Of a DNA stretch of 64,000 nt, positions 1,405 through 43,970 are shown piece after piece (the first letter of the stretch is position 1; each line of letters begins with the position of its first letter). Made by a program: the position numbers and the translations under genes. The stretch lies in contig VMTK01000018.1 in NCBI GenBank assembly GCA_013791585.1, positions 7,316-71,315 on the forward strand. The letters are read 5' to 3'. Under the pieces are notes generated by a model. The model ran no database searches. It was not told the DNA's origin and saw nothing but the letters and a program-made list of their open reading frames with translations. Source of the DNA: Candidatus Falkowbacteria bacterium (GTDB lineage: Bacteria > Patescibacteriota > Patescibacteriia > Patescibacteriales > VMTK01).

Positions 1405-2760
1405 ATGAAACAAATAGCTGATTTGCATATTCATTCTAAATATTCCCGCGCCTGCTCTCCGCAATTGACTTTGGAAAATATTGATAAAACTTGCAGGATA
1501 AAAGGAATAGATATTATCGCTACTGGTGATTTTACTTATCCGGATTGGTTTTTTGATATAAAAAATGAATTACAGGAACTAAAGGGCTCGAAAGGGCTTT
1601 ATAAGTTAAAATCAGCAGAAGATGATAAGGTGAGATTTTTACTTTCTACTGAGTTGGCTTTAATTTATAAAAAAAATAACAAGTGCCGGCGGATTCATTT
1701 GGTTGTGCATGCGCCGAATATTAAAGCAGTGGAGGAGCTGAATAAATATTTAGATAAAAAATATAATATCCGCTCTGACGGCAGGCCGATTCTTGGCATG
1801 AGCGCCGAAGAGTTAATGAAATTATGCCTGTCTATCCATCCTAAATATTTAATTTATCCGGCGCATCTTTGGACACCATGGTTTGCCGTATTCGGCTCCA
1901 AGTCCGGTTTTGATTCCATGGGAGAATGTTTTGGAAAGTACACGGAAAATATTTATGCTTATGAAACCGGCTTATCTTCTGATCCTGAAATGAATTGGCG
2001 CTTGTCCTCTTTGGACAAATTAACATTGCTTTCCAATTCTGACGCGCACAGTTTGCCGAATATCGGCAGAGAGGCCAATGTTTTTAATTTAAAAGAGATT
2101 AGCTATGATGAGATATATAACGTGATTAAACACAAAAACACAAAAACACAAAAACACAAAAACAATGAAATGCAAGAACACGAGAACACTTGCCTTGCCG
2201 AATTAAGGTCGACGAAAACGATAAAACATAAATTAAATTCTTTTTTGGATTATACTATTGAATTTTATCCGGAAGAAGGAATGTATCATTATGACGGGCA
2301 TCGCGCTTGCGGAATCAGTTTTTGCCCGAAAGAAACCAAAAAACAAAAAGGAATTTGTCCGGTTTGCAAAAAACCGCTTACTGTCGGCGTTATGAACAGA
2401 GTTGAAGAGCTGGCTGATCGCCCGATTGGATTTAAGCCCAAAAACAAGCCTGGGTTTAAAAAGTTGGTTGAGCTGGACAAGATTATCTGCGAAGCTCTTA
2501 ATATCAAATCGCGCGCTTCAAAAGCAGTGCAGGCAGAATATAATAATTTAATAAATTGCCTTGGCAACGAGCTGGATATTTTAATGAATATTGATTTGAA
2601 TAAGATAAAACAAGCGGCGCGGCCGGAAATCGCTGAAGGCATTAAAAGAGTCCGCGCAGGCAAGCTGATTATTGAGCCGGGCTTTGACGGGCAATACGGC
2701 GCGGTTAAAATTTTCAGCGATGAGGAGAAGAGGGATAATAAACAAAAAAGTTTGTTTTGA
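1405..2760 (+). CDS. PHP-domain endonuclease Q-like protein (COG1379-type, PHP + Zn ribbon)
   Basis: DLHIHSKYSRACS PHP start, GDFTYPDW, CPVCKKPLTVGVMNRVEELA zinc ribbon; carries an in-frame CACAAAAA array (HKNTKTQKHKN, 2131-2164). Confidence 0.65.
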   Translation: MKQIADLHIHSKYSRACSPQLTLENIDKTCRIKGIDIIATGDFTYPDWFFDIKNELQELKGSKGLYKLKSAEDDKVRFLLSTELALIYKKNNKCRRIHLVVHAPNIKAVEELNKYLDKKYNIRSDGRPILGMSAEELMKLCLSIHPKYLIYPAHLWTPWFAVFGSKSGFDSMGECFGKYTENIYAYETGLSSDPEMNWRLSSLDKLTLLSNSDAHSLPNIGREANVFNLKEISYDEIYNVIKHKNTKTQKHKNNEMQEHENTCLAELRSTKTIKHKLNSFLDYTIEFYPEEGMYHYDGHRACGISFCPKETKKQKGICPVCKKPLTVGVMNRVEELADRPIGFKPKNKPGFKKLVELDKIICEALNIKSRASKAVQAEYNNLINCLGNELDILMNIDLNKIKQAARPEIAEGIKRVRAGKLIIEPGFDGQYGAVKIFSDEEKRDNKQKSLF

Positions 2761-2856
2761 GGGCAACCCATCTAAAAAAGAAGGCGCTCCGATGGACATC
2801 GGAGCGCCTTCTTCTTTTTAAAAACAAAAATAGGGCTTGCGTGCTTGAAAGATTTT

Positions 2857-2900
2857 TTTGTTAGGATGGGTTTTAAAACCCATCCTAACAAACCTAACAA
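2857..2900. repeat. 40-nt palindromic element, copy 2 (inverted relative to 104-143)
   Basis: Reverse complement equals TTTGTTAGGTTTGTTAGGATGGGTTTTAAAACCCATCCTA of copy 1; the pair brackets the two genes at 160-2760. Confidence 0.8.
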
Positions 2901-2955
2901 AAAAATTCCAGGCAAAGATCTAATATTTTCATGAAACGCGTAAATCCTAAAAACA

Positions 2956-3016
2956 AAAACTCCGCGTTTATTTACCAAGGAATTATTTTCACGGACAAAT
3001 AAACGCGGAGTTTTTT
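2956..3016. terminator. bidirectional hairpin terminator
   Basis: AAAAACTCCGCGTTTATTT ... AAATAAACGCGGAGTTTTT, A/T tracts on both sides, between convergent genes. Confidence 0.7.
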
Positions 3017-3026
3017 ATGGAAATTT

Positions 3027-3200
3027 TTATTTTTTTCTTTTTGCCGCTTTCTTTTTTCTTTTTGGCGCGGCCTTTTTTCTTTTTGCTACTTTCTTTTTTG
3101 GCGCGGCCTTTTTTCTTTTTGCCACTTTCTTTTTTGGCGCGGCCTTTTTTCTTTTTGGCGCGGCTTTTTTCTTTTTTACTGCTTTCTTTTTTGCTGTCAT
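3027..3200 (-). CDS. Lys/Ala-rich histone H1-like basic protein (57 aa from MTAKKK)
   Basis: Repeats KKAAPKRKK/KKVAKRKK; GGAGGTG SD at 3207-3213 supports the internal Met rather than the ORF-track start at 3248. Confidence 0.6.
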   Translation of the reverse strand: MTAKKKAVKKKKAAPKRKKAAPKKKVAKRKKAAPKKKVAKRKKAAPKRKKKAAKRKK

Positions 3201-3555
3201 AATTTTCACCTCCTTTCTTGAAAGCGGATTGCTAAAAAAGCATTCCACAATTTTATTTTATGAAGATTATATTTCTTAATTATATTTTACCATAAATAAA
3301 ATTAATTAACAATAGTTTCTATAAAAAGTTTTAAAATTAAATTTTTATTTTTAGAAATTGCGCACTTTTTTATTTTTATTATCAATAATGCCTTTTTCTG
3401 TCATTCCCGCGAAGCTTGTCCTCGACCTGATCGGGGAGCGGGAATCCAGAGCTACGAGCGCAAATTATAAATTATCAAACAAATCTTTTCAGGCAGTATT
3501 TTGATTTTTAATTTTTAAATAATTTTCAATGATTAAATTTCTAAATTTTCGCCGT

Positions 3556-3626
3556 GCCACAGTCTCCTCGCAAGGGACTGTGGCGGACAAATGATCGTCG
3601 CAGTCCTCTGCGGAGAGACTGCGACG
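3556..3626. repeat. two adjacent GC-rich hairpins (GCCACAGTC..GACTGTGGC and CGTCGCAGTC..GACTGCGACG)
   Basis: The second matches the elements found in-frame in pth (49199-49269) and valS (24504-24533). Confidence 0.75.
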
Positions 3627-3707
3627 AGGCGGGGGCAATAATATTCAAAAATTTAGTATTCAAATGCGTATTTTTCTTTAATATTAGCAAAGTTGAATGT
3701 AATTTGC

Positions 3708-3736
3708 TTGACTTTTTTTTCTTTGTATGTTAAGCT
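3708..3736 (+). promoter_or_regulatory. sigma70-like promoter TTGACT-17-TAAGCT
   Basis: Read directly; sits upstream of an ORF-free structured region. Confidence 0.4.
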
Positions 3737-3742
3737 GATTTA

Positions 3743-11565: not shown

Positions 11566-12320
11566 TCGTATGCCTTTGAGCGATTCCATGTAAACTTAAA
11601 TAATGATTTATTGAATTGATAAATATTTTTATCATTTATAATCATTGATATAATGCCTTTCGTTGAAAGGGAAATATAGGCTACTTTTCCATCGTAAATT
11701 TCAACAATAGAGTTAAAAGGATATTTTAAATGGTCAATAAAACGAAACTCGCTAACTTTCGGGTGATAGTCTTTGAGATAATTTCTAGCGAACAACGTAT
11801 CAATTACTATAATTTTTTTCATAATATTCAGTTGCTCTCTTTTTTTCGCGTGTTCTCTGTTCAGCTTCTCCATATATTTAACAACCGCTTCAACATCCGC
11901 GAAAGTGCAAATTGTTTCTTTGGCGGTCAGCATATCGTCCAAAACTATTTTTAAGCCGTTTATTCCCTCAAAATACCTTACTCCCGGCTTGCCGGAAACC
12001 AGATTAAAATCCGAAACAATGCCAGATAGATTCGCTTCCAGGGTATTTTTCGCTTTTTTAAATTCGCTTTCTTTCTGCTCGGCAAAATCACGCAGTTTTT
12101 CAGGATGGTCCGGGCTGAAATAAGCGACTTTATCCTTGGTTTTCTGCGATGCCAGCCCCTTTTTAACTAATGCTGTTAAGGCATTATAAACAACTCCGCG
12201 CTTAAGCGGGGTTTTTTTAATGATTTTCCCGGCCGAAGATTCGCCGTTCTTTAATAGATATTCATAGACAACGGCTTCATTGGCCGACAGCCCTATTTGA
12301 GTAAAAATGTCTTTATACAT
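11535..12320 (-). CDS. TrmB-family winged-HTH regulator-like protein
   Basis: IGLSANEAVVYEYLLKNGESSAGKIIKKTPLKRGVVYNALTALVKKGL; 3' end overlaps the convergent 779-aa gene by 31 nt. Confidence 0.7.
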   Translation of the reverse strand: MYKDIFTQIGLSANEAVVYEYLLKNGESSAGKIIKKTPLKRGVVYNALTALVKKGLASQKTKDKVAYFSPDHPEKLRDFAEQKESEFKKAKNTLEANLSGIVSDFNLVSGKPGVRYFEGINGLKIVLDDMLTAKETICTFADVEAVVKYMEKLNREHAKKREQLNIMKKIIVIDTLFARNYLKDYHPKVSEFRFIDHLKYPFNSIVEIYDGKVAYISLSTKGIISMIINDKNIYQFNKSLFKFTWNRSKAYDQLPSLSNAQ

Positions 12321-12520
12321 GTTGTTTGCTTCGCAAAGCCCGGCTGCAAATCGGGCGCATGCGAATTAATGTTTTTTGCTTCGCAAAGCCCGGCTACGAA
12401 TCGGGCACATGCGAATTAATGTTTTTTGCTTCGCAAAGCCCGGCTACGAATCGGGCACATGCGAATTAATGTTTTTTGCTTCGCAAAGCCCGGCTACGAA
12501 TCGGGCACATGCGAATTAGC
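12321..12520. repeat. 4 x 50-nt head-to-tail tandem repeat, each unit a nested hairpin
   Basis: Units start at 12321, 12371, 12421, 12471. TTCGCA AA GCCCGG CTACGAA TCGGGC ACA TGCGAA; unit 1 has loop CTGCAAA. The array fills the whole intergenic gap, from the NTase stop codon to the TrmB-like start codon. Confidence 0.95.
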
Positions 12521-14410: not shown

Positions 14411-14497
14411 GGATTTGAAACGCGGCGCTACAAATGCCGCCCATCCGAATAAACGGATTTGAAACGCGGCGCTACAAATGCCGCTCGTGCGAATAGA
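14411..14497 (+). repeat. two 44-nt-spaced units GGATTTGAAAC GCGGCG|CTACAAA|TGCCGC + (CCAT CCGAATA / TCGT GCGAATA)
   Basis: Hairpin-family copies 6 and 7 (stems 14422-14440 and 14466-14484). Confidence 0.85.
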
Positions 14498-18415: not shown

Positions 18416-18502
18416 GGGCTAAACCGCTCGCAGACGATTTAGCCCCTTTACCGTTTCAAATATCTGATCTGAAATCTGAAATCCGACATCAGAAATCCGA
18501 AA

Positions 18503-18613
18503 TGGTGGGCGACACAAGATTTGAACTTGCGACCTCCACGATGTCAACGTGGCGCTCTAATTTACTCCGGTACGCCCCGCTGGGCTACCGGAGCGAGCTG
18601 AGCTGCTTGTTGT
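18503..18613 (-). pseudogene. tRNA-Val(GAC)-like gene with a 37-nt hairpin inserted in the D-loop and no matching 5' acceptor strand
   Basis: 3' half is canonical (CCACG TTGACAT CGTGG AGGTC GCAAG TTCAAAT CTTGT GTCGCCC A CCA). D arm is GCTC AG[CTCGCTCCGGTAGCCCAGCGGGGCGTACCGGAGTAAA]TTA GAGC. The upstream 7 nt do not pair with GTCGCCC. Confidence 0.4.
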
Positions 18614-18618
18614 TTTTG

Positions 18619-18692: not shown

Positions 18693-18774
18693 GTATCGGA
18701 TGTCAGATTTCGGATATCTGAAATCAGATTGTTAATTTATCCGAAATCCGAGATCTGAAATCCGATATCCGAAA

Positions 18775-18922: not shown

Positions 18923-18939
18923 ATTTTTGAAATCTGAAA

Positions 18940-27311: not shown

Positions 27312-27316
27312 TTTTT

Positions 27317-27805: not shown

Positions 27806-27837
27806 AATAACATGACAAGTTGCATTAAAATAAAAAT

Positions 27838-28734: not shown

Positions 28735-28833
28735 TATGAAAATTAAAATGCGTTTAGTTTATATCTCGCTTGCCAATATAAACAAAATAGCCCAAAACGT
28801 TTACATTACTAAGACCAATATAAACTAAAATAT

Positions 28834-29649: not shown

Positions 29650-29793
29650 TTATGGCAAAAATAAAACATCCAATTAAAGAATTTTGGGAATCAGACAAAA
29701 AATCTAATTATCTTGAAGTATCAAAAACAAAAGATAGTTCGGTAAAGATAGTGAAATTTATAAAACCAAAATCGAAAAACAAGAAAAAATAAT

Positions 29794-30960
29794 ATGAAAA
29801 CAATTTTAAAAACCGACATCACTGTTAAAGATATTTGCGAGGGGTTCGTCTATAACGAACTGGAAGGCAAGGGTTTGTTTGGCTTGTCCGGCAAGTTGAC
29901 TATTCAGCCGGAGTATCAGCGAAATTACATCTATGCGTCTGACGGCGGAAAAAGAGAGATGGCTGTTATTGAATCACTGCTTAAAGATTACCCGATAGGT
30001 TTGATTTATTTTAATAAGGTTTCTGAAAATAATTTGGAAGTTTTGGACGGACAGCAGCGCATCACCAGTGTTGGGCGTTTTGTGACTGACAAATTTGCAA
30101 TAAAAGATGAAAACGGGATGCAATATTTTGGCGGCATGGCAAAAGACAAGAAAGCCAAGATTTTGGAAACAAAACTGCTCATTTATGAATGCGAAGGCAC
30201 GGAAAGCCAGATAAAAGAGTGGTTTAAGACGATTAATATTGCCGGAGTTCCGCTCGTCTCCCAAGAATTGTTAAATGCGATCTATTCCGGACCATTCGTT
30301 ACTCTGGGCAAAGAAGAGTTCAGCAACAGCCAAAATGCCAATATTCAAAAATGGAGCGCGTATGTAAAGGGCAGCGCAAACCGACAGGCATTTTTTGAGA
30401 GGGCTTTAGACTGGGCGAGTAAAGGAAATATTGATGATTATATGAGCATTCATCGCCACGACAAAAATATCAATGAGTTAAAAAAATATTTCAACAGCGT
30501 GATTGACTGGGTTTCCGGTGTATTTATTGATGTAGAAAGCGAGATGCGCGGACTTGAGTGGGGACGAATGTATGAGCAGTATCACAAGAAAGCATATAAC
30601 CCTGCAAAAGTGTCGGCAGAAGCTCAAAAACTCTACGGCGATCCTTATATTAAAAATCGCAAGGGCATCTTTGAGTATATTCTCGGCGGCTCCATTGACA
30701 CAAAATTGCTTGAAGTTCGCGTTTTTGATGACGCGACCAAAAAAGCAGTTTATGCAGCGCAAACTGCCAAAGCAAAGAAAAAAGGCAAGTCAAATTGCCC
30801 GCATTGCGCTATTGGACACGACGCAAACAAAGAGAAAATTTGGAGTTTAAGCGATATGGACGCCGACCATGTTGCGGCTTGGAGCAAGGGCGGCGCGACT
30901 TCGGCAAAGAATTGTCAGATGCTTTGCAAGACGCATAATAGGGCAAAGGGAAATCGTTAA
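29794..30960 (+). CDS. DUF262 (GmrSD N-terminal-like) + C-terminal HNH nuclease
   Basis: [12 protein letters not shown] (DGQQR) and [32 protein letters not shown] (HNH). Confidence 0.8.
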
Positions 30961-31240
30961 AATACTAAAAGCGTAAAAATGAAAACTTAATGGTCATTTT
31001 GTTTCAGTTTACCTCAAACATATTCGCGCAATGCGACAAATTGATTTTGAAAAAATTTGGAAAAATAAAGATGGAGACTTAGAATTATTAGAAAATAAAT
31101 TGTATAAAATGAAGAAAAAATAATGAGTTTATGGGCAAGTGGCAACTCACCTCCTTAGTTTTTCTATGTTTAATAAATAAAAATTAAAATACATCAAAAA
31201 AAATACCCTAATCTCAGGGTGTTTTTATTTTTGCCACGCA

Positions 31241-31304: not shown

Positions 31305-32513
31305 ATGCCAAAAATCATAACGGACAAGAATAAAATCAAGGAATTATTAACAAGGGGGGTTGTTGATGTTATTGTTAAAAAAAGTTTGGAGAAAAAGCTG
31401 ATGAGCGGCAAGCAGTTGAGGATAAAGCACGGCGTTGATCCCACAGGGCCTAAAATTCATCTTGGCAGGGCTTCCACTTTGCGCAAGCTGGCAAAATTTC
31501 AGGAGCTTGGCCATAAGGTGGTTTTAATTATAGGCGACTTTACAGCTTTAATCGGGGATGCGTCTGATAAAGATGAAGAGCGGACAATGCTTACTCGCGC
31601 GCAAGTCAAAGAAAACATGAAAGGGTATCTTAAGCAAATGGGGAATATTTTTAATATAGAAAAGGCGGAAATTCATTATAACAGCGAATGGCTGAGCAAA
31701 CTGAATTATTATGATATATGCAGACAGGCAAACGCTTTTTCAGCCGCGCAGATATTGGATAGGGATAATTTTTCAAAGCGCTTTAAAGCAGGCGAGAGGA
31801 TTTCTTTGCGTGAAATGTTTTATCCTTTAATGCAGGGCTATGACAGCGTCGCGATAAAATCCGACATTGAAATAGGAGGAAGCGACCAGTTGTTTAATGT
31901 TTTGGCAGGCAGGGAATTGCAGCGGCTGTATAAGCAGGAGCCGCAGGATATTATTACTTTTAAATTAATGGATGGCATTGACGGAAGGAAAATGAGCACG
32001 AGCTGGGGCAATGTTATCTGCGTTGTTGAAGATCCAAAAGATATTTACGGCAAGATTATGTCAATGCGCGATGAAATTATCGCGCAATATTTTGAATTAG
32101 CCACGGATATTTTTTTAAGCGAAATTAAAAAGTATGAGCAAGAAATGAAAGCTAACAAAATCAATCCCCGTGATTTAAAAATGAAATTGGCGCGTGAAAT
32201 TGTAAGAATTTACCATGGCGATAAAAAAGCGAAACAAGCGGAAGAGCATTTTATCAAAACAGTTCAGAAAAAAGAAGCGCCGGACGAAGTAAGAAGTAAG
32301 AAGTTAGAAGTAAGAAGTATGAATATAATTAATTTACTAATGGAAGTAAAATTAGTCGGCAGCAAAGGAGAAGCAAGGCGTTTAATAGCGCAGAACGGAA
32401 TTAAAGTTGACGGTAAAATAGTTGAAGATGCTAACAGGGAAATTAAAATAAGCAAAAAAGAAATGTTATTGCAAAGAGGCAAGAGGCAATTTGTTAAAGT
32501 AATTGGAAATTAG
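31305..32513 (+). CDS. tyrS: tyrosyl-tRNA synthetase (start taken at MPKIITDK)
   Basis: HGVDPTGPKIHLGRA, KMSTSWGN, C-terminal S4-like RRLIAQNGIKVDG; the -10 box lies inside the longer ORF-track start; in-frame 7-nt repeat at 32286-32320. Confidence 0.85.
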   Translation: MPKIITDKNKIKELLTRGVVDVIVKKSLEKKLMSGKQLRIKHGVDPTGPKIHLGRASTLRKLAKFQELGHKVVLIIGDFTALIGDASDKDEERTMLTRAQVKENMKGYLKQMGNIFNIEKAEIHYNSEWLSKLNYYDICRQANAFSAAQILDRDNFSKRFKAGERISLREMFYPLMQGYDSVAIKSDIEIGGSDQLFNVLAGRELQRLYKQEPQDIITFKLMDGIDGRKMSTSWGNVICVVEDPKDIYGKIMSMRDEIIAQYFELATDIFLSEIKKYEQEMKANKINPRDLKMKLAREIVRIYHGDKKAKQAEEHFIKTVQKKEAPDEVRSKKLEVRSMNIINLLMEVKLVGSKGEARRLIAQNGIKVDGKIVEDANREIKISKKEMLLQRGKRQFVKVIGN

Positions 32514-32561
32514 AAATTGGCGATTTGGATATAAAATAGAATTTTATTTTTGCGTTTTTTT

Positions 32562-35500
32562 ATGAGCGGTTTAACGGAAAAATTAAATAAAGAACAATCG
32601 CAGGCCGTTACTCATAGAGAAGGGCCGCTTTTAATAGTGGCGGGCGCCGGGACAGGAAAAACCACTGTCATAACTCAGCGCATCGCTTATATCATAGAGC
32701 GGGGCTGGGCAAAATCAGATGAGATTTTGGCTTTAACTTTTACGGAAAAAGCAGCCGGCGAGATGGAGGAAAGAGTTGATCGGCTTCTGCCGATGGGTTA
32801 TCTGGATTTGTGGATTTCAACTTTTCACAGCTTTGGCGAACGGATTTTAAAAGAGCATGGGCTGGAGATCGGCTTGCCGGCTGATTTTAAATTGCTTAAT
32901 GAATTTGAGCAGTGGTCGCTGGTTAGAAAAAATTTGGATAAATTCAACTTGGATTATTACCGGCCAATGGGCAACCCGGCCAAGTTTATCCATGCTTTAA
33001 TCAAGCATTTTTCCCGCGCCAAAGATGAAGATATTTCGCCGGCGGATTACCTCCAATACGCGGAAGGGTTGAGGGAGAATTTGGACGGGATGTTGAGCGG
33101 AGCAATTACAAAAAACACAAAAACACAAAAACACAAAAACACAAAAACAAATATAGACGGAGAGAATAGTAAAGAAATTGCGGAGCAGGAAATTTTAAGG
33201 ATTAATGAGGTTGCGAACGCATATCATGTTTATCAGCAGTTATTATTGGACAACAGCGCTTTGGATTTTGGGGATTTGATAAATTATTCTTTGAAATTAT
33301 TCAGGGAGCGGCCGGCAGTGCTGGAAAAATACAGGAAGCAATTTAAATATATTTTGCTTGACGAATTTCAGGACACGAATTGGGCGCAGTATGAATTGAT
33401 AAAAATACTGGCTCAGCCAAGGAATAATTTGGCGGTTGTTGGAGACGATGATCAGAGCATTTATAAATTCCGCGGGGCGTCAATATCAAATATTCTGCAG
33501 TTTAAAAAAGATTTTCCAAAGTCCAAAGAGATTTTTTTGGTTAATAATTACCGCAACAAGCAGAATGTGCTGGATTTGTCTTATGAATTTATTAAATTAA
33601 ATAATCCAAATAGATTGGAATATCAGTTGAACACGAAAACACGAAAACACAAAAACACGGAAAACACGAAAACACTCGGCCTGCGGCCTCAAAACACAAA
33701 AACACTCAGCTTCGCCTCAAAACACGAAAACACGAAAACACGAAAACACGAAAACACTGAAACACATGAGTTAAATAAAAAGTTGTTGGCGCAGGGAAAG
33801 GGCGAGGGCGTGATTGAGGTGATTCAGGGAAGTGATTTGCAGGATGAGGTTGGCCGAGTGGTGGAAAAAATTGCCGATTTAAAAATTCAGAGCAAGAACT
33901 CCAGCTGGAATGATTTTGCCATATTGGTTCGGGCGAATGACAGCGCCAAGGATTTTTGCAACGCGCTGGAAATTGCCGGCTTGCCTTACCAATTTTTATC
34001 TTCCCGCGGGCTTTATGCCAAGCCGGTGATTATGGATTTGACGGCTTACTTGAAATTGCTTGACGACTATCATGAAAGCGCGGCTGTGTACAGAATTTTA
34101 AATTTGCCTGTTTTAGATTTTTCTTATCAGGAATTGGTTAATTTTAATTATATCGCCAGAAAAAAAGCTTGGTCGCTTTATACTGTTTTGCGCGATTCGC
34201 GCGGCAGATTAGGCAGCGCAATTCAGCAAAAGATTGATAGAATTTTATCTTTGATAGGCAAGCATACCGCTTTGGCAAGAGAGAAAAGCGTTAGTGAAAT
34301 TATTATAGCTTTTTTAAACGATAGCGGCTATTTAAAATATTTGACCTCACCCCCCGCCCCCTCTCCTTCGCATGTCCCTGGCTTGAACAGGGAAGAGGGG
34401 GAATATGAGCGGGAAAGCAGAGAGAACATGAATTTGCTTAACCAATTTATGAAAAGAATAAAAAAGTTTGAATCAGCAAGCGACGATAAAAGCGTTAAAG
34501 CGTTTTTGGCTGAACTGAATATGGAGATTGATTCCGGTGAGCAGGGCTCTTTGTCTCCGGATATTGAATCCGGTCCGGAAGCGATTAAGATTATGACAAT
34601 ACACGGATCTAAAGGCCTTGAATTCAAATATGTGTTTATCGCCAATATGGTTGACAAGCGGTTCCCGACAATAGAGCGTCAAGAGCAGATTTTGATTCCG
34701 GACGCTTTGATCAAGGAAATTCTGCCGGAAGGGGATATTCACCTTGAAGAAGAGCGCCGGCTTTTTTACGTGGCCATGACGCGGGCTAAAAATGACCTTT
34801 ATTTTTCCTGGGCGCCTGATTATGGAGGGGTTCGGAAAAAGAAACCTTCAAGGTTTTTGGCGGAATGCGGGTTGATTCACGAAAACACGAAAACACTAAA
34901 ACACTCGGCTTCGCCTCAAAACACGAAAACACTCGGCTTCGCCTCAAAACACGAAAACACAAAAACACGAAAACACGAAAACACGAAAACAGCAATATCA
35001 GATATTGGCGAGAGCGCAAAGCGCAAAGTACAAATTACTAAAACCGAAACGGAGATGCAAATTCCAAATTATTTTTCCTATACTCAGCTGGCGGCGTTTT
35101 CAAATTGTCCGTACCAATACCGCTTTGCGCATATTTTGCGGGTTCCGATGACAGGCAAGCCGGTTTTTTCATTCGGCAAAACCATGCACTCTGTTTTGCA
35201 GAAGACATTTGAGCTGGTTAATGAAAAGAAGGGATTGGGGCAGGGGGATTTGTTTTCCCTCACCCCCCAGCCCCCTCTCCCGGCTGGGAGAGGGGGAGGC
35301 GATTCCAGCTCCGCGCCTCGTCGCGCAGCCGCCTCTGCTAAACAGTATATGGGGAGTATTGAAAATAGTCCCCCCTCCTGTTTAGGAGGGGCAGGGGGAG
35401 GTATAAATATTAGCTTGGAAGAAATTTTGAAATTATACGAACAAAGCTGGATTGATGACTGGTATGAATCTGACAAGCAAAAGCAGGAATACAAAAAGAA

Positions 35501-36050
35501 AGGCAGGGAAATTTTGAAAGAGTTTTACGCAAAGCATCAGGATAACTGGCCGCACGCGGCATATTTGGAAAAGGGATTTAATATTAAGCTGCGCGGAACA
35601 CGAAAACACGAAAACACGAAAACACAAAAACACGAAAACACGAAAACACAAAAACACGAAAACATTGGGACAACAGCGGTTGGAGGCGAGGTGTATACTG
35701 TGCGCGGCGTGATAGACAGAATTGACGAGGAGGACGGCAAGTTGAAAATTGTTGACTACAAAACAGGAAGCCCGAAAGACAAATTAACTTTTAATGAAAA
35801 AGAGCAATTGCTTATTTATCAAATGGCGGTAAGCGAAATATTCAGGCAAGAAATCAGTTCGCTGGCTTTTTATTATTTGAATAATAATTCAGAAGTTGAA
35901 TTTTTGGGCACAGATGAGGAATTAGACAAAACTAAAGATAAAATTTTAAATATTATTAAAGATATTAAAAAAGGAGAATTCCCGGCCAAGCCCAGCCAAT
36001 TGTGCAAGTTTTGCGATTTTTATAGTATTTGCGAATTTCGGAAAAGTTAA
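32562..36050 (+). CDS. UvrD/PcrA-type helicase fused to a PD-(D/E)XK Cas4/AddB-like nuclease, with large repeat inserts
   Basis: AGAGTGKTTV, LLDEFQDTN, VVGDDDQSIY; C-terminal CPYQYRF, DRID..DYKTG, CKFCDFYSIC; inserts at 33108-33150, 33631-33775, 34347-34401, 34878-34991, 35258-35402, 35598-35664. Confidence 0.85.
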   Translation: MSGLTEKLNKEQSQAVTHREGPLLIVAGAGTGKTTVITQRIAYIIERGWAKSDEILALTFTEKAAGEMEERVDRLLPMGYLDLWISTFHSFGERILKEHGLEIGLPADFKLLNEFEQWSLVRKNLDKFNLDYYRPMGNPAKFIHALIKHFSRAKDEDISPADYLQYAEGLRENLDGMLSGAITKNTKTQKHKNTKTNIDGENSKEIAEQEILRINEVANAYHVYQQLLLDNSALDFGDLINYSLKLFRERPAVLEKYRKQFKYILLDEFQDTNWAQYELIKILAQPRNNLAVVGDDDQSIYKFRGASISNILQFKKDFPKSKEIFLVNNYRNKQNVLDLSYEFIKLNNPNRLEYQLNTKTRKHKNTENTKTLGLRPQNTKTLSFASKHENTKTRKHENTETHELNKKLLAQGKGEGVIEVIQGSDLQDEVGRVVEKIADLKIQSKNSSWNDFAILVRANDSAKDFCNALEIAGLPYQFLSSRGLYAKPVIMDLTAYLKLLDDYHESAAVYRILNLPVLDFSYQELVNFNYIARKKAWSLYTVLRDSRGRLGSAIQQKIDRILSLIGKHTALAREKSVSEIIIAFLNDSGYLKYLTSPPAPSPSHVPGLNREEGEYERESRENMNLLNQFMKRIKKFESASDDKSVKAFLAELNMEIDSGEQGSLSPDIESGPEAIKIMTIHGSKGLEFKYVFIANMVDKRFPTIERQEQILIPDALIKEILPEGDIHLEEERRLFYVAMTRAKNDLYFSWAPDYGGVRKKKPSRFLAECGLIHENTKTLKHSASPQNTKTLGFASKHENTKTRKHENTKTAISDIGESAKRKVQITKTETEMQIPNYFSYTQLAAFSNCPYQYRFAHILRVPMTGKPVFSFGKTMHSVLQKTFELVNEKKGLGQGDLFSLTPQPPLPAGRGGGDSSSAPRRAAASAKQYMGSIENSPPSCLGGAGGGINISLEEILKLYEQSWIDDWYESDKQKQEYKKKGREILKEFYAKHQDNWPHAAYLEKGFNIKLRGTRKHENTKTQKHENTKTQKHENIGTTAVGGEVYTVRGVIDRIDEEDGKLKIVDYKTGSPKDKLTFNEKEQLLIYQMAVSEIFRQEISSLAFYYLNNNSEVEFLGTDEELDKTKDKILNIIKDIKKGEFPAKPSQLCKFCDFYSICEFRKS

Positions 36051-36188: not shown

Positions 36189-36644
36189 ATGACTTTAAAA
36201 GCATATTTAATCATAATGTCAATAACAACTCTGCTTTGCTGGCTGGCTTTTGGGTTTATTCTGCGGAGCATTGATCCGTATGTTACTAACTGGGTTGGAT
36301 TTTTGCTGTTTTACGGCTCTTTATTTTTAACCATGGCGGGAACAAGCGCGATAATCGGCTTTTTGATCAGATTCGCCCCGCACCCTTTTGGCAGTATTAT
36401 TCCGAAATGTTTTAGAAAGGCAAACACTGAACTCTGCCAAAAGGGTGCGGGGTTAAAGCATGAGCTTGTTTTTAATTCAGTTAGAAATGCTTTTCGCCAG
36501 TCATTTTTTTTCGCTTTTTTAATTATAGCGGCTTTGATTTTACTGTCAAAGGATTTGTTTACATGGGGTAATTTGATTTTATTAATATCAAGCTTGTCGG
36601 TTTTGGAATTTTTTATGATAAGCTATGGATCGCGTAATGCGTAG
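36189..36644 (+). CDS. hypothetical membrane protein interrupted by a 19-bp-arm palindrome
   Basis: 4 TM-like segments; CCCCGCACCCTTTTGGCAG (36376-36394) and its exact reverse complement (36434-36452) lie in-frame. Confidence 0.55.
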   Translation: MTLKAYLIIMSITTLLCWLAFGFILRSIDPYVTNWVGFLLFYGSLFLTMAGTSAIIGFLIRFAPHPFGSIIPKCFRKANTELCQKGAGLKHELVFNSVRNAFRQSFFFAFLIIAALILLSKDLFTWGNLILLISSLSVLEFFMISYGSRNA

Positions 36645-36942
36645 CGCATAACGCGTAACGCGTAAAACTTTATTGTCATTCCTCCGTACATTGTCATCCC
36701 GTAAAAATTTTGCGTGTGAGCAAAATTTTATACGGGATCCAGGGTTAAAATCAACGAATTATATTTTAGAATACGCAAGTTAAAAGCTATAAATACGATT
36801 AACAAAGCATTAAGCTTAAGCGTGTCTAATCCTGTATTCCGCATCATTTAATAATAAAAAAAATAATGAGTGTGCGGGATGACAAAAAAATCATATAAAT
36901 CATATAAATCCCTGCTAAATAAAAGGGCAGAGATATAAGATA

Positions 36943-37986
36943 ATGAAAGAGAGACTATTACAACTTAAACAAGAAATATTGGATAATTTGGGCAAGGCAA
37001 AAGACTTGTCAGTTTTGCGTAATTTAGAAACTAAATATTTAGGGCGCAAAGGAGAACTGACCAAAATATTGCGGGGCATTTCCAGCATGGCAGGGGAAGA
37101 AAAAAAGAATATCGGCAAATTAGCCAATGAAATTAAAACAGAATTGCGAAATAAATTTGAACAAGTTGAAAGATCCTTGAGCGGAAGCGCTGACAAAGCC
37201 GGTTTTTTAGATGTAACTTTGCCGGGCAAAAAAATAAAACAGGGCCATCTTCACCCCATAACCATAATTCAAAATGAATTGGAAGACTTATTCACTTCCA
37301 TGGGATTTATGGTGCTGGACGGCCCTGAGCTGGAAAGCGATTATTATAATTTTGAAGCATTGAACATACCCGGCAATCATCCGGCCAGAGATATGCAGGA
37401 TACTTTTTATGTTGCCCCCGGCCCCTCCCCCGCTGGCGCGGGAGAGTGGAGGAGCGATATGGTGATGCGGACGCATACTTCGCCGGTGCAGATTCGGGCT
37501 ATGCGGAAATACGGCGCGCCGTTAAGGTGCGTGGTTCCCGGCAGGGTTTTCAGATGCGAAGCGACAGACGCCTGCCATGACACCACTTTTGATCAGCTGG
37601 AAGGTTTTATGATTGATAAAAATATTTCAATTTCAAACCTTATTTCAGTGTTGAAAGAAATGCTTTCCGGAATTTTCAAGCAGGAAGTAAAAATCAGAGT
37701 GCGGCCGGGATATTTTCCTTTTGTTGAGCCGGGATTGGAAGTTGATGTGAACTGTACGATTTGCGATGGGAAAGGGTGCCCGAGCTGCAAACATAGCGGC
37801 TGGCTGGAAATGATTGGCGCCGGCATGATCCATCCCAATGTTTTAAAATACGGCGGAATAGATTCAAAGGAATATTCCGGCTTTGCTTTCGGCTTGGGAT
37901 TGACCAGATTAGCCATGATGAAATACGGCATTGATGATATTAGATTATTTAATAGCGGGGATTTGAAATTTTTGGAGCAATTTTAA
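36943..37986 (+). CDS. pheS: phenylalanyl-tRNA synthetase alpha subunit
   Basis: HPARDMQDTFY, VPGRVFRCEATDACHDTTFDQLEG, GAGMIHPNVL; GC-rich insert APGPSPAGAGEWRS. Confidence 0.95.
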   Translation: MKERLLQLKQEILDNLGKAKDLSVLRNLETKYLGRKGELTKILRGISSMAGEEKKNIGKLANEIKTELRNKFEQVERSLSGSADKAGFLDVTLPGKKIKQGHLHPITIIQNELEDLFTSMGFMVLDGPELESDYYNFEALNIPGNHPARDMQDTFYVAPGPSPAGAGEWRSDMVMRTHTSPVQIRAMRKYGAPLRCVVPGRVFRCEATDACHDTTFDQLEGFMIDKNISISNLISVLKEMLSGIFKQEVKIRVRPGYFPFVEPGLEVDVNCTICDGKGCPSCKHSGWLEMIGAGMIHPNVLKYGGIDSKEYSGFAFGLGLTRLAMMKYGIDDIRLFNSGDLKFLEQF

Positions 37987-38047
37987 TCGCATAACTCATA
38001 TCGCATATCGCATAACGCATAACGCATAACGCATAACATAAATATAT

Positions 38048-40008: not shown

Positions 40009-42543
40009 ATGTATCTATCGCTAAACTGGCTAAAAGATTTTGTTAATATTCCGAAATCAATAACTCCGGAAGAGTTAGGTTTGCGCTTAACTATGCATAC
40101 GGTGGAGATTGACGGAGTGGAAAAGCAGGCAGATAAGCTTGCTCATATTGTTGTGGGAAAAATTTTAGAAATCAAGAAACACCCTGATGCTGATCGCTTG
40201 CAACTGGTTAAAGTTGATATTAAGGATAAAAAATTAGATATAGTTTGCGGCGCTTCAAACATTGAAATAGGACAGTCAGTTCCAGTGGCTTTGGCAGGCG
40301 CTATTTTACCTAATGGAGCGGAAATTAAAGAAACTGAGGTGAGGGGAGAAAAATCTTTCGGCATGCTTTGCGCTGAAGATGAATTGGGGCTGGGCGATGA
40401 TCATAGAGGTATTATGATATTGGACAAGGGCGCAAAGATCGGACAGAGTTTAGGAGAGTATTTGAAATTAAAAGATGTTATTTTTGAAGTTGACAATAAG
40501 TCAATTACCAATCGCCCTGATCTGTGGGGGCATTACGGAATGGCGCGGGAGATCGCGGCTTTTTTAAGTGTTAAATTAAGACCTCACCCCGTCCCTCTCC
40601 TTAGTAAGGAGAGGGTGCCTGATAAGGCGGGTGAGGTTAAGATAGATGTTAAGGTTGAGAATTTTAAATTATGCCCTCGCTATATGGCGGTATGCTTGGA
40701 CGGAATCAAGATTGAAGATTCGCCCAAATGGATGCGGGAGCGGCTGATAGCCGTAGGCATGCGGCCGATAAATAATATTGTTGATATAACCAATTATGTG
40801 ATGCTGGAATTGGGACAGCCCTTGCATGCGTTTGATGTTAGAACAATCTTAGGCGATGAAATTCCAAATAACAAATTTCAAATAACAAACCCCGCAACAT
40901 CGCTGCGCGACAACGGGGCAGGTAAATCTCAAATTCCAAATCTCAAATTCCAAAATGATATTAAGATAGTTGTGAGGCGGGCTAAAAAAGGCGAGGTGAT
41001 GGAAACTTTAGACGGGGAGAAAAAAGAATTAGACAATGAAATGCTGGTGATAGCCGATGATAAAAAGCCGATTGCCATAGCCGGTGTAATGGGAGGCGCC
41101 AACAGCGAGATAAGAAATGAAACCAATTCCATTATCATGGAATGCGCCAATTTTGACTTTGCTTCAATCAGAAAAACATCGCAGAAACTGGGTTTGCGCA
41201 CGGAATCTTCAATGCGATTTGAAAAAGGGCTGGATCCTAATCTTTGCGAATTGGCTTTGGCGCGCGCCGTTGAGCTGGTTAAAAAAATATGCCCTAAAGT
41301 AAAAGTCGTCAGTGAATTAGCGGATGAAAAAAAGTTTACGATAAATCAAGGCCCGATTAAGCTGAATTTAGACTGGCTGAATCAGAGTTTAGGCGAAATA
41401 ATTGAAGAAAAAAAAGCAGTAAATATTTTAGAAAATCTGGGTTTTGGCGTTAAGAAGATTAAAGATGAGCTGGATGTTACAATTCCAACATGGCGCGCCG
41501 GCCGGGACATTTCCATTCCCGAGGACTTGCTTGAGGAAGTCGCGAGGATTTTCGGCTATAACAATTTAAAGCCCGCTATGCCCAAGGTTGCCATGAAAGC
41601 TCCTGAACTTAATCAAGAGCGGTTGTTTGAGCGCGAGATAAAAAATATTTTGTCCAACGGCGCGGGCTTGTCGGAAGTTTATAATTATTCTTTTGTCGGA
41701 GAAGATCAGCTCACAAAGCTTGGCATTGATTTTTCTTCGCACATTAAATTGGCCAATCCGATAGCTGTTCATCAAACATTGCTCCGCCAGAATTTGGCTC
41801 CGAATTTGATCAATAATATCAAAACAAATCAAGCTAAATTTGAGCAGTTTGGCTTTTTTGAAATAGGCAGTGTTTATTTAAGCACTCCGGGGGATATTAA
41901 CAAAGACAATAGCGGCAAAGAGCATCTTCCTTATCAGGAAAAACGGATCGGCATTGTTTTGGCGGCTGATAAAAAAACAGATGTTTTCAGCCAAGCCAAA
42001 GGAGCGGTTGAATATTTGTTGTCATCGTTGAACTTGCCGGTTGATTTTACAGCGATTGAATCCGGCCCGGGCTGGGCTGATGAAAATATCGCCGCGGATA
42101 TTAATTGCCAAAAAAATAAAATAGGAATAGCGGCCAAGCTGAATGAAAAATCAGCCAAAGCTTTGGGCGTGAAAAAAGAAGCCGCGATAGTTGAGATAAT
42201 TTTGAGCGAGCTGTATAAACTAGCCGGCAAGCAAGCCGTTAAGAAATATCAGGAGTATGAAAAATATCCGCCGCTTGTCAGGGATTTGGCTTTTGTGGTT
42301 AGCGAGAAAATATTGTATAATAACATCAGGAATGATATAATTAATTTTAGTGAATTAATAAGGAGCGCTGAATTGTTTGATGTTTATTATGGCGGCAAGC
42401 TGGGATTTGGCAAAAAAAGCTTGGCGTTTCACATTGTTTATCAAGCCGGCAGAACATTAACAACGGAAGAAATTGATATTTTGCAAAAACAGTTAATTCA
42501 GAGGTTGGAAGAGAAATTTGACGCGAAGATTAGGGACTTTTGA
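40009..42543 (+). CDS. pheT: phenylalanyl-tRNA synthetase beta subunit
   Basis: N-terminal tRNA-binding domain (HPDADRLQLVKVD), B3/4, B5 and C-terminal FDX-ACB-like regions; inserts at 40582-40636 and 40860-40960. Confidence 0.95.
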   Translation: MYLSLNWLKDFVNIPKSITPEELGLRLTMHTVEIDGVEKQADKLAHIVVGKILEIKKHPDADRLQLVKVDIKDKKLDIVCGASNIEIGQSVPVALAGAILPNGAEIKETEVRGEKSFGMLCAEDELGLGDDHRGIMILDKGAKIGQSLGEYLKLKDVIFEVDNKSITNRPDLWGHYGMAREIAAFLSVKLRPHPVPLLSKERVPDKAGEVKIDVKVENFKLCPRYMAVCLDGIKIEDSPKWMRERLIAVGMRPINNIVDITNYVMLELGQPLHAFDVRTILGDEIPNNKFQITNPATSLRDNGAGKSQIPNLKFQNDIKIVVRRAKKGEVMETLDGEKKELDNEMLVIADDKKPIAIAGVMGGANSEIRNETNSIIMECANFDFASIRKTSQKLGLRTESSMRFEKGLDPNLCELALARAVELVKKICPKVKVVSELADEKKFTINQGPIKLNLDWLNQSLGEIIEEKKAVNILENLGFGVKKIKDELDVTIPTWRAGRDISIPEDLLEEVARIFGYNNLKPAMPKVAMKAPELNQERLFEREIKNILSNGAGLSEVYNYSFVGEDQLTKLGIDFSSHIKLANPIAVHQTLLRQNLAPNLINNIKTNQAKFEQFGFFEIGSVYLSTPGDINKDNSGKEHLPYQEKRIGIVLAADKKTDVFSQAKGAVEYLLSSLNLPVDFTAIESGPGWADENIAADINCQKNKIGIAAKLNEKSAKALGVKKEAAIVEIILSELYKLAGKQAVKKYQEYEKYPPLVRDLAFVVSEKILYNNIRNDIINFSELIRSAELFDVYYGGKLGFGKKSLAFHIVYQAGRTLTTEEIDILQKQLIQRLEEKFDAKIRDF

Positions 42544-42697
42544 ATTAAATAATAAAATAGTAAAATAATAAAATAATTAACTAAATTTGAGTCTAAAATT
42601 TAACGCAACACTCTTTATTAAAGCAGTATTAAAATGTTCGTTGAAGCTAATTAAATTAATTTTATTATTTTATTATTTTACTATTTAATTATTTTTT

Positions 42698-43018
42698 ATG
42701 TTTGAAACAACTCAAGATTTATTAAACACAGTCAAAGCCGTTTCTATCTTCGGCTTGGCTTTTTTCGCCTGCTGGGCGATTTTTTATCTGGCAATGATTT
42801 TGCGCCAAGGGTTTAAAATCATAAAAGACACCAGAGAGCGCCTGCATAAAGTTGACGAAGTAATCAAGGCGCTGAAAGAAAAAATAGAGCACAGCGCTTC
42901 GTATTTGCTGTTGATTGGCGAAGGGGTCAAGAAATTGGTTGACATGGCCAAGGAGTATTCTGGCAAGGGGGAGAAGAAAGCAAGAAGCAAGAAGCAAGAA
43001 GTGAGAAGCAAGAAGTGA
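42698..43018 (+). CDS. hypothetical small membrane protein
   Basis: One TM segment; the C-terminal tail is encoded by the 7-nt repeat AGAAGTG/AGAAGCA. Confidence 0.45.
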   Translation: MFETTQDLLNTVKAVSIFGLAFFACWAIFYLAMILRQGFKIIKDTRERLHKVDEVIKALKEKIEHSASYLLLIGEGVKKLVDMAKEYSGKGEKKARSKKQEVRSKK

Positions 43019-43068
43019 GAAGTGAGAAGTGAGAAAAAATAGTTAAATGCGTAAAATTATTTTTTATT

Positions 43069-43118
43069 ATGCTGGAATTTTTGCAGGAGAATTTTAATTT
43101 GTATAAGGAGCTGTATTA
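43069..43118. repeat. 50-nt direct repeat, left copy, flanking the DUF433/DUF5615 cassette
   Basis: ATGCTGGAATTTTTGCAGGAGAATTTTAATTTGTATAAGGAGCTGTATTA; 49/50 identical to 43779-43828. Confidence 0.9.
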
Positions 43119-43163
43119 AGAATTTTGACAATAAAAAATATTTGTGATAGTTTTATAAATAAT

Positions 43164-43415
43164 ATGATAAATAAATATAAAAATAGAATAATTATTGATC
43201 CTGAAATAATGGTCGGCAAGCCGATTATTAAAGGGACTAGGATTACCGTGGAATTGATTTTAAAATTACTTGCCCAAGGGCAACCCACTGAAGAGATTCT
43301 AAATGCTTATCCTCATCTTAAAAATAAGGATATTTACGCATGCTTAGAATATGCCGGCGGGATTGTTGAAGAAGAAAGAGTTTTGCCTTTAAGCCGTAAA
43401 TTAAAATTCGCATAG
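43164..43415 (+). CDS. DUF433-family antitoxin-like protein
   Basis: IIIDPEIMVGKPIIKGTRITVELILKLLAQG. Confidence 0.7.
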   Translation: MINKYKNRIIIDPEIMVGKPIIKGTRITVELILKLLAQGQPTEEILNAYPHLKNKDIYACLEYAGGIVEEERVLPLSRKLKFA

Positions 43416-43417
43416 TT

Positions 43418-43768
43418 ATGAAATTTCTTTTTGATGAAAATATAGGATGGCGCGTTGTTGAATTTTTCAAGATGCAAGATTATGACATTAAATCAGCATT
43501 AGATGAATTAAGAGGCGAGAGCGATAAAAAAATATTAAAAATCGCTTATCAAGAAAAGAGAATTATTGTGACATTGGATAAGGATTTTTGTAGTTTTATT
43601 TTCAAGGATTTTATCCATTGCCACGGGGTAATTTTATTAAGATTGTCCAACGAATCGCAGGAAAATATTATTAACGCGCTAAAAAATGTTTTAGAAAATA
43701 CAGGCGATGAGCTTCATGGCAGCTTCTTGGTTGTCAATGATGATAATGTGAGAATCCGCAAGATATGA
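43418..43768 (+). CDS. DUF5615 (PIN/Mut7-C-like) toxin-like protein
   Basis: MKFLFDENIG...IIVTLDKDF pattern, adjacent to the DUF433 gene. Confidence 0.65.
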   Translation: MKFLFDENIGWRVVEFFKMQDYDIKSALDELRGESDKKILKIAYQEKRIIVTLDKDFCSFIFKDFIHCHGVILLRLSNESQENIINALKNVLENTGDELHGSFLVVNDDNVRIRKI

Positions 43769-43778
43769 TTTTATATTA

Positions 43779-43828
43779 ATGCTGGAATTTCTGCAGGAGA
43801 ATTTTAATTTGTATAAGGAGCTGTATTA
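43779..43828. repeat. 50-nt direct repeat, right copy
   Basis: One T/C difference from 43069-43118. Confidence 0.9.
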
Positions 43829-43851
43829 GTTTGAACTAATAGAATAATATA

Positions 43852-43970
43852 AACACGAAAACACGAAAACACGAAAACACACGGTCTAACGGCCTAAACA
43901 CAAAAAACACTATTTATTTTTTTAGTGTTTTCGTGTTTTGAGGCGAAGCCGAGTGTTTTCGTGTTTTTTT
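43852..43970. repeat. intergenic inverted pair of CACGAAAA arrays (hairpin between convergent genes)
   Basis: AAACACGAAAACACGAAAACACGAAAACAC ... GTGTTTTCGTGTTTTGAGGCGAAGCCGAGTGTTTTCGTGTTTTT; same words as the intragenic arrays. Confidence 0.85.

Follow-up and report, generated by a model that had tools for sequence, protein, structure and literature searches.

Octamer arrays translated within housekeeping genes of a Candidatus Falkowbacteria genome as probable copies of a satellite-like repeat family

We analysed a stretch of 64,000 nucleotides (nt) from a Candidatus Falkowbacteria genome (Patescibacteriota; contig VMTK01000018.1, positions 7,316 to 71,315), hereafter the window, in which short tandem arrays of the octamer CACRAAAA lie within genes and between them. 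The window contains 60 copies of the word, whereas dinucleotide-preserving shuffles contain 11.8 ± 3.8 and none of 100 reaches 60; nearly all copies fall in ten uninterrupted runs, every one on the + strand (2131-2162, 23062-23093, 23278-23357, 33116-33147, 33632-33655, 33723-33754, 34878-34893, 34950-34989, 35599-35662 and 43854-43877). A sequence-only reading of this DNA had placed CAC(A/G)AAAA arrays at these sites, and they are indeed present there. According to Tandem Repeats Finder the arrays have a period of 8 nt, 90-100% matches and 4.6-11 copies; with head-to-tail units of no more than 9 nt and high identity, they answer to the description of simple sequence repeats.

Three intact open reading frames (ORFs) hold all the genic arrays: an EndoQ-like gene of the PHP/TIGR00375 family (1405-2760), the valyl-tRNA synthetase gene valS (21927-24803) and a gene for a UvrD-type helicase fused to a PD-(D/E)XK/Cas4-like nuclease (32550-36050). 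The arrays are read in frame in each of them, as had been proposed, and encode HKNTKTQK / HENTKTRK repeats, in agreement with the predicted peptide with a period of 8 amino acids (aa). The codon phase of the CAC word varies among the seven genic arrays (0, 1, 1, 2, 2, 0 and 1), and since 8 and 3 share no common factor, every phase gives the identical octapeptide repeat. Neither octamer contains a stop codon in any of the six frames, as the sequence-only reading had pointed out, but this is nothing special, being a property shared by 46% of all octamers.

In the EndoQ-like gene, a (CACAAAAA)4.6 array on the + strand (2128-2164) belongs to an insert region of about 120 nt (2131-2250), in which a degenerate array/core remnant follows the array; at this point the protein is a net 32 aa longer than its syntenic orthologue. 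The helicase-nuclease, found in four contigs, carries four arrays on the + strand. A1 (33111-33149) is a (CACAAAAA)4.9 array also present in one 68%-identical orthologue. A2 (33630-33775) combines arrays with two cores, CAC-TCGGCCTGCGGCCTC-AAAA and CAC-TCAGCTTCGCCTC-AAAA, and its site is occupied by heptamer arrays in other lineages. A3 (34878-34991) lies in the linker between helicase and nuclease and contains arrays with two exact cores TCGGCTTCGCCTC; an ENTKT(Q/R)KH array stands at the equivalent linker position in orthologues of 63-68% identity, and the DNA of this site in the L186 helicase reads (CACRAAAA)6 plus core. A4 (35597-35664), a (CACRAAAA)8.5 array in a loop of the PD-(D/E)XK domain, has no counterpart in any orthologue examined. 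Orthologues no more than 61% identical show gaps or unrelated short segments at all four positions. The core AACACTCGGCTTCGCCTCAAAACACG, which had been taken as unique, occurs exactly at three window positions (34900 and 34928 on the + strand, 43932 on the - strand) and with one mismatch at 33701; it is, however, also found beyond this genome. These comparisons bear out the claim that the arrays are insertions insofar as there are lineage-specific, in-frame inserts without counterpart in orthologues, but some arrays are ancient.

Two octamer arrays and one heptamer array, all on the + strand, interrupt valS. Homologues of its product assign the window to Patescibacteria, and a protein identical to that product is annotated as Candidatus Falkowbacteria. 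Site 1 (23055-23111) is a 57-nt (19-aa) insert, GETQKHKNTKTQKHKLDIE, with (CACAAAAA)5 at 23059-23099, and is confined to the window lineage and an 88%-identical relative. Site 2 (23276-23364) is a (CACRAAAA)11 array between PVWH and EIYVG, in a loop that is hypervariable across Patescibacteria and lacks an insert in several homologues (e.g., P0017 and P0029). A syntenic, more distant genome (L074) has (CACAAAAA)4 at site 2, and a Kuenenbacteria genome (L108) has a short AAAACACAAAAACAA remnant there and a full array at a different valS site. The third array (23859-23927) consists of (ATTTCAG)3, a 30-nt GC hairpin and (ATTTCAG)2; in the relative L004 this site is an uninterrupted (ATTTCAG)5. 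The start of the anticodon-binding domain of ValRS, the product of valS, is in fact occupied by lineage-specific heptamers at one codon position (e.g., ATTTCAG, ATTACGA, CAAAGTT and AACGCAT), and many of about 90 ValRS homologues have differing 7- or 8-residue periodic peptides at this site and at site 2.

A surface-loop position had been suggested for the ValRS array. When ValRS is aligned with the Thermus thermophilus enzyme (1GAX), site 1 lies in the gap separating the two aligned blocks, and the stretch around site 2 aligns poorly. The AlphaFold model computed from 90 homologues reached a mean predicted local distance difference test score (pLDDT) of 81.1, against 47.8 for a model from 13 sequences. 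The only segments with pLDDT below 50 are 378-393, 454-478, 650-664, 776-786 and 856-877, all coil, and these correspond to the two octamer arrays (site 1, 378-393; site 2, 454-478), the heptamer array with its GC hairpin (650-664) and two GC-rich inserts. The arrays thus lie in variable loops predicted to be disordered, and the ValRS inserts show the structural tolerance known from Rickettsia palindromic elements: coil, low pLDDT and gaps relative to 1GAX.

Heptamers behave similarly in other genes. In tyrS, a (GAAGTAA)5.4 array (32286-32323, + strand) occupies the linker before the S4-like C-terminal domain. It had been grouped with the octamers as analogous, and it is an in-frame heptamer array, but its unit includes TAA and is not stop-free; units in which TAA would be in frame read TTA or TAT, point changes that avoid in-frame TAA and reflect selection against stops. 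The array noted in der (engA; 50507-50548, - strand) is likewise in frame and of short period, although the period is 7, (CGGATGT)6, with no octamer; its coding strand reads (ACATCCG)6, translated as (TSDIRHP)2 in the linker that joins the two GTPase domains. In pheT (40859-40954, + strand), heptamer arrays of the AAATNNC type flank a GC hairpin core, CCCCGCAACATCGCTGCGCGACAACGGGGCAGG, which belongs to the core family seen in valS. Counting perfect arrays of at least three copies, the window has nine of period 7, eight of period 8, three of period 4-5 and none of period 6 or 9-12. CACRAAAA is the unit of all eight octamer arrays, whereas the heptamer units are diverse, with CGCATAA itself multi-copy. 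A similar trend towards periods 7 and 8 was seen in pooled relatives. Eleven of the 17 perfect period-7/8 arrays lie wholly within ORFs and three more overlap ORF ends, so they are not predominantly intergenic.

A comparison of array length between strains, proposed from the sequence alone, revealed a step of whole repeat units. Valyl-tRNA synthetase site 2 is 24 nt (3 units, 8 aa) shorter in three assemblies of 98-99% identity than in the window, and this is the sole coding indel across 8.7 kb aligned at 98% identity. The helicase of an 89% relative has a longer A1 with a hairpin core, and one core rather than two in A2, adding to the polymorphism of copy number in whole units. In the 88% relative, both valS arrays have the window length and all their units are CACGAAAA, which points to homogenization at the DNA level. 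The pattern of site occupancy as a whole fits either long-lived arrays in concerted evolution or repeated colonization of a few permissive loops.

Genic arrays were also recovered outside the window, and the orientation of each was scored on DNA loci, an array being counted when it lay inside a long ORF in the Patescibacteria loci recovered. The hosts were IscS-like, NusA, MnmA, ribosomal protein L4, MurG, a GT4 glycosyltransferase, an SNase-like nuclease, PolA, ValRS and an ABC ATPase. Counting the window, 11 genome loci and 5 metagenome loci, every one of the 19 genic contexts found has the array in sense orientation. The sense peptide is strongly hydrophilic (Kyte-Doolittle value about -2.9, against +1.75 to +3.2 for antisense), and the antisense strand would encode the hydrophobic FSCFRVFV / FLCFCVFV. 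The suggestion that such inserts are tolerated in any frame or orientation therefore holds for frame, all three phases being used, but not for orientation. Units giving a stop-free peptide without hydrophobic residues make up about 10% of octamers and about 13% of heptamers. A search for the repeat peptide in a set of 5.8 billion proteins gave just four short matches.

Between genes, the octamers form a different structure. The intergenic inverted pair at 43851-43970 is composed of an array with a degenerate core, a loop, and an inverted core with an array, together making a long hairpin between two convergent genes, a PIN-like ORF (43418-43768) and topA (43969-46215). The pair had been noticed from the sequence, and it does fold: 43845-43975 reaches -46.1 kcal/mol (z = -7.2), and similar z values were obtained for the intergenic inverted pairs at 49585-49662 (z = -7.2) and 51098-51162 (z = -6.7). 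The genic arrays, on the other hand, fold no better than shuffles (A2, z = 0.1; A3, z = -0.9), and their lengths (32-145 nt) are set by copy number instead of being those of a palindromic unit of about 100-150 bp. Terminal inverted repeats are absent from the genic copies, whose flanks are direct arrays, and in the intergenic inverted pairs the arms make up the whole element. No RNA family in Rfam overlaps any array.

A metagenome scan for array plus core returned 49 loci, about 25 of them from a single metagenome; the only overlap with the window was the orthologous helicase. Most of these copies are intergenic and directly follow stop codons or a tRNA gene. They are laid out as [array + core]n - loop - inverted array, with up to 12 tandem 28-nt units, a periodicity that might recall clustered regularly interspaced short palindromic repeats; that reading was rejected, as the units consist of core plus octamers without unique spacers. 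Core variants retain a GGC/GCC or GGCC/GGCC stem and differ in their loops. A different core, TTTATCCGCC...GGCGGAC, adjoins the CACRAAAA arrays in the L186 helicase and in NusA of L024, and the locus-specific heptamer arrays of valS, pheT and the valS of a relative enclose GC hairpins of the form CCCCG...CGGGGC(A/T)GG. In two loci (L197 and L206), a 20-nt palindrome is nested in the core and flanked by a 9-nt direct duplication, GGCTTCGCC. The initial picture of simple microsatellites was hence incomplete: these are tandem repeats, but as members of a dispersed, composite family whose copies lie mainly between genes.

Arrays of (CACRAAAA)3 were found at more than 106 loci of many phyla in a genome scan, and those outside Patescibacteria are mostly intergenic inverted pairs. 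In viral contigs, CACRAAAA arrays occurred at 19 loci, compared with 28 and 26 for composition-matched octamers. Because matched octamers are at least as frequent there, we take the recurrence across phyla as generic or convergent and not as homology; the idea of CACRAAAA as a special pan-bacterial motif was rejected on the same grounds.

Several Saprospiraceae / Bacteroidetes genomes (L023, L054, L062 and L093) have intergenic elements of the form (GTGTTTTT)n-GGCTTCGC, about 90 nt, GCGAAGCC-(CACAAAAA)n. The two arms match as exact complements, even in where a single G-variant unit falls, and there are several copies per genome. They resemble the architecture of the window pair in an unrelated phylum, with homology and convergence both possible.

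We consider it somewhat probable (roughly 55%) that the CACRAAAA arrays are copies of a dispersed satellite-like family of this Patescibacteria group, driven by slippage and filtered by selection. The basic module would be a head-to-tail octamer array, often broken by a GC-rich mini-hairpin core, CAC-[TCGGCTTCGCCTC or variant]-AAAA, and array plus core may in turn recur as a higher-order unit of 28 nt. In intergenic regions, inverted pairs of modules would form long hairpins after stop codons and tRNA genes, in the manner of terminators or repetitive extragenic palindromes. Within genes, only single-orientation arrays would survive, giving a (H)(K/E)NTKT(Q/R)K octapeptide whatever the phase of insertion. 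Selection would admit inserts with a length that is a multiple of 3, a stop-free sense strand and a hydrophilic peptide, placed in a tolerant surface loop or linker; the requirement for a hydrophilic peptide would explain why the sense orientation alone is seen, and the peptides themselves may be nearly neutral. Copy number would shift through slipped-strand mispairing, viable changes in ORFs being of ±3 units (24 nt), while arrays are homogenized at the DNA level and cores come and go inside them. Units of 7 nt probably undergo a like process, leading to 7-residue repeats, and appear pervasive in relatives. Candidate routes to new sites include transposition, template switching and gene conversion between arrays. 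The anatomy of the arrays, their status as inserts, the predicted disorder, the sense bias, the 24-nt difference and the dispersal of the family are observations, whereas slippage as the driving force, near-neutral peptides and a terminator-like role of the hairpins are inferences.

Several results weigh against this interpretation. Only one of about eight arrays varies among 98%-identical genomes; as the other arrays in the aligned stretch are unchanged, they are not hypermutable at the strain scale, and the array lengths conserved in the 88% relative tell the same story. Arrays at orthologous sites in proteins of 63-68% identity fit long vertical persistence, and possibly function, equally well as repeated colonization. 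As to dispersal, we found no terminal inverted repeats or clear target-site duplication, and no transposase among about 22 window ORFs searched with Pfam/NCBIfam. The viral-contig counts also speak against a special status of the unit. Finally, a consensus terminator scan did not flag the array hairpins, whose loops and GC content lie outside the scan rules, and for this reason the hairpins can be called terminator-like only by presumption.

A broader proposal, possible rather than probable in our view, is that a process common to Patescibacteria generates 7- and 8-nt tandem duplications that seed frame-cycling satellites, that is, repeats with a period that is not a multiple of 3 and are hence read through all three frames, which selection confines to permissive loops. 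The duplications may arise from polymerase stalling or slippage at GC mini-hairpins, or as target duplications of a hairpin element that inserts and excises repeatedly. The same essential-enzyme loops would then be refilled lineage by lineage: ValRS after PVW(H/Y), the start of its anticodon-binding domain, and helicase sites A1-A3.

Among the alternatives to a slippage-driven family, a miniature mobile element survives best, although we regard it as unlikely. Genic copies would be separate insertions of a non-autonomous array plus GC core, mobilized by a transposase in trans, and the element would be the Patescibacteria counterpart of the Rickettsia palindromic elements; in its strongest version, the 7/8-nt arrays themselves are target-site duplications accumulated by repeated insertion and excision of hairpin cores. 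An array with an identical or nearly identical core does recur in genes unrelated to one another and between genes, about 25 of the loci coming from a single metagenome, and the core TTTATCCGCCGAA..GGCGGAC stands beside arrays in both the L186 helicase and the L024 NusA. ValRS site 1 is a clean 57-nt gain limited to one lineage, GC hairpin cores are present or absent within otherwise identical arrays, one GC-hairpin family sits amid the locus-specific heptamer arrays of valS and pheT, and the nested palindrome of L197 and L206 has its 9-nt direct duplication. However, genic copies show neither terminal inverted repeats nor a fold (z about 0), the window ORFs scanned include no transposase, arrays at orthologous sites persist over 63-68% identity, and copy number steps in whole repeat units, as expected of slippage. 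The single pair of filled and empty alleles, at the valS heptamer site, has five units in both and no extra unit. A target-duplication origin of the arrays is therefore unsupported at that site and was kept as a minority view.

A purely local origin, by slippage in place on an A-rich proto-repeat, is less likely still. The recurrence of CACRAAAA and of a few heptamers would then reflect convergence on the few units that are stop-free and hydrophilic in all three frames, a filter that leaves only about 10% of the octamer units and about 13% of the heptamers. The heptamer excess of bacteria is known and has been ascribed to the polymerase footprint (PMC4692102, citing Mrazek 2007). The short AAAACACAAAAACAA of L108 at valS site 2 may be regarded as a seed; ValRS loops contain different 7- and 8-residue periodic peptides in many of about 90 homologues, and the viral-contig control indicates that the CACRAAAA unit is not globally special. 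Nevertheless, one unit is common to all eight octamer arrays of the window, and complex non-repetitive cores are shared by unrelated loci and species, which convergence fails to explain. Moreover, CACRAAAA is also the unit of intergenic copies, which are free of any peptide filter.

Selection for the repeat itself, either as a K/H-rich disordered octapeptide that adds, for instance, a capacity to bind nucleic acids, as lysine-rich extensions do in eukaryotic tRNA synthetases, or as a strand-specific 8-mer DNA signal of the Chi or FtsK-orienting polar sequence (KOPS) type, seems very unlikely. It would suit the long retention of arrays at helicase sites A3 and A1, the array length conserved in the 88% relative, the nucleic-acid-binding role of all the window hosts, and the coding-strand placement of all copies, GC skew being positive on that strand here. 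Hosts elsewhere nonetheless include MurG, a GT4 glycosyltransferase, IscS and an ABC ATPase, and many close orthologues are wholly without arrays. The units are identical in DNA, with no synonymous divergence, near-identical genomes differ in copy number, and intergenic copies occur as hairpins in both orientations. Chi and KOPS sites, furthermore, are not distributed as tandem arrays in loops.

An assembly or sequencing artefact can be dismissed: several metagenome-assembled contigs do end at or near arrays or GC inserts (partial proteins P0275, P0396 and P0399-P0401), but the 958-aa window ValRS is identical in at least four National Center for Biotechnology Information (NCBI) assemblies (four NCBI accessions, five contigs overall), a 950-aa allele occurs in three others, so that ValRS arrays recur with intact ORFs in at least seven independent assemblies, all eight full-length valS copies read as DNA are in frame, and other species carry orthologous arrays. 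Phase variation was rejected as well, the hosts being essential (valS, tyrS, pheT, der and the helicase) and out-of-frame alleles not having been seen.

Inserts of a comparable kind are known from Plasmodium, an AT-rich genome in which the loops of housekeeping enzymes contain low-complexity segments that are hydrophilic, disordered and prone to slippage. The Plasmodium inserts are codon-based (period 3) and Asn/Lys-rich, whereas here the DNA period is 7 or 8 and the peptide period equals the nucleotide period. Like contingency loci, the arrays place within an ORF a tandem unit that is not a multiple of 3, in which a slip by one unit shifts the frame. Contingency loci belong to surface and virulence genes; the present hosts are housekeeping genes, the variant observed preserves the frame by a step of 3 units, and a shift would be a cost and not a switch.

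A close bacterial parallel is offered by the Rickettsia palindromic elements. According to PMC10969869, which summarizes Ogata et al. 2000, these are dispersed short, selfish repeats in frame in unrelated housekeeping genes, with a conserved translated peptide, fold-tolerant sites and a reduced-genome host, all features of the arrays studied here. They are palindromic and about 100-150 bp long, unlike the unstructured octamer arrays of 32-145 nt and variable copy number reported here. There is no sequence relationship, the host phylum is another one, and frame independence follows here from the 8-nt period and not from element design.

Bacteria are known to contain long simple-sequence repeats with units of 5-11 nt, among which heptamers are in excess (PMC4692102, citing Mrazek 2007). 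Heptamer-type repeats of this class, such as cyanobacterial short tandemly repeated repetitive sequences and the GGGAATC repeat of Xanthomonas, share with our arrays the excess of period 7, genome-specific unit families, a proposal of slippage, and intergenic copies, some of them inverted. As described, they are essentially intergenic, while many of those found here are translated in essential genes and occupy loops across the clade; the arrays described here are, in addition, joined with GC hairpin cores into 28-nt units. The arrays carry the known heptamer-repeat excess of bacteria into coding sequence. No account of in-frame 7/8-nt arrays in Patescibacteria or the candidate phyla radiation turned up in our literature searches. 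[quoted passage not shown] Unlike in MITEs and REPs, the hairpin arms are here tandem arrays that expand and contract, the genic copies lack terminal inverted repeats, and no cognate transposase came up among the roughly 22 window ORFs scanned.

These arrays represent a little-described way by which simple repeats lengthen core proteins. If it is general, satellite DNA with a period that is not a multiple of three would account for some of the variation in length and loops among core proteins of the candidate phyla radiation. The arrays also constitute a natural experiment on insert tolerance, with essential enzymes accepting a frame-independent, hydrophilic and disordered peptide in the sense orientation only. 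In practical terms, they account for contig breaks and spurious antisense ORFs in metagenome-assembled genomes of the group, and can serve as strain-typing markers for uncultured organisms. The tight preference for 7/8 nt and its link to GC mini-hairpins make the question of why bacteria over-produce heptamers testable in an extreme lineage. Should the clade-wide process be real, it would be a general way, not described before, for protein length to evolve in the candidate phyla radiation, and the intergenic versions would act as expandable terminator hairpins.

The heptamer CGCATAA/CGCGTAA is a second multi-copy family of the window, with 20 matches against 0.8 expected, at 24864-24877 (-), 36631-36665, 37988-38037, 49549-49562, 49682-49695 (-), 61336-61377 and 61391-61411 (-). 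Its copies lie directly upstream of start codons or bracket intergenic regions, at times as inverted pairs; the pair at 49549-49695 encloses another repeat hairpin and that at 61336-61411 spans a start codon. Heptamer arrays of (ATCCGAA)n adjoin tRNA genes (18467-18503 and 18739-18775). Beside tRNA-Val (18618-18692) and tRNA-Ile (18940-19015) there are two tRNA-like sequences (18506-18612 and about 18790-18935) that share a palindrome of about 35 nt, CTCCGGTACGCCCCGCTGGGCTACCGGAG. One of them scores 28.5 bits on the tRNA model (threshold 29); both may be tRNA genes that are interrupted or carry an intron.

Short palindromic repeats rich in GC, of at least three families, are present in this genome of 37% GC, with the forms CCCCTCTCC...GGAGAGGGG, CGCAGTCCTCTGCG(A/G)GAG(A/G)CTGCG and CCCCG...CGGGGCAGG. 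Sites within genes are 24235-24290 and 24505-24560 (valS), 34342-34400 and 35256-35420 (helicase) and 37408-37456 (pheS); further sites are 3610-3636, 49230-49283 and 24828-24860. Several are in frame within essential genes, giving peptides such as PQPPLPAGRGGG and RRSPLREAAAGQ, and orthologues lack them or differ. The GC insert at 34342-34400 in the helicase differs by 18 nt between strains. The metagenome relative with an 89%-identical helicase (L227) has an intein-like insertion of about 360 aa in this protein, running from CLPGDSL to VVVHN within DDDQ|SIYKFRG, which the window gene lacks.

Longer tandem repeats occur as well. An intergenic 50-nt unit is repeated 4.0 times with 97% identity at 12319-12518 and contains a CCCGGCT...AATCGGGC hairpin, and a 44-nt unit, 1.9 copies at 14411-14495, also intergenic, contains the hairpin GCGGCGCTACAAATGCCGCC. 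At 3031-3196 there are nested tandem repeats with periods of 21, 36 and 57 nt, T/C-rich on the + strand; they are codon-periodic, unlike the 7/8-nt arrays, and on the - strand they probably code for a repeat protein rich in lysine and alanine. Between valS and tyrS (24861-31000) lie defence-type genes, among them an AbiEii neighbour, an EcoRI-like methylase (26208-27311) and a GmrSD/HNH gene (29794-30960). After about 27220, the window diverges from a 98%-identical strain (L001), which has RhuM/AntA genes there, and this part is thus a variable island.

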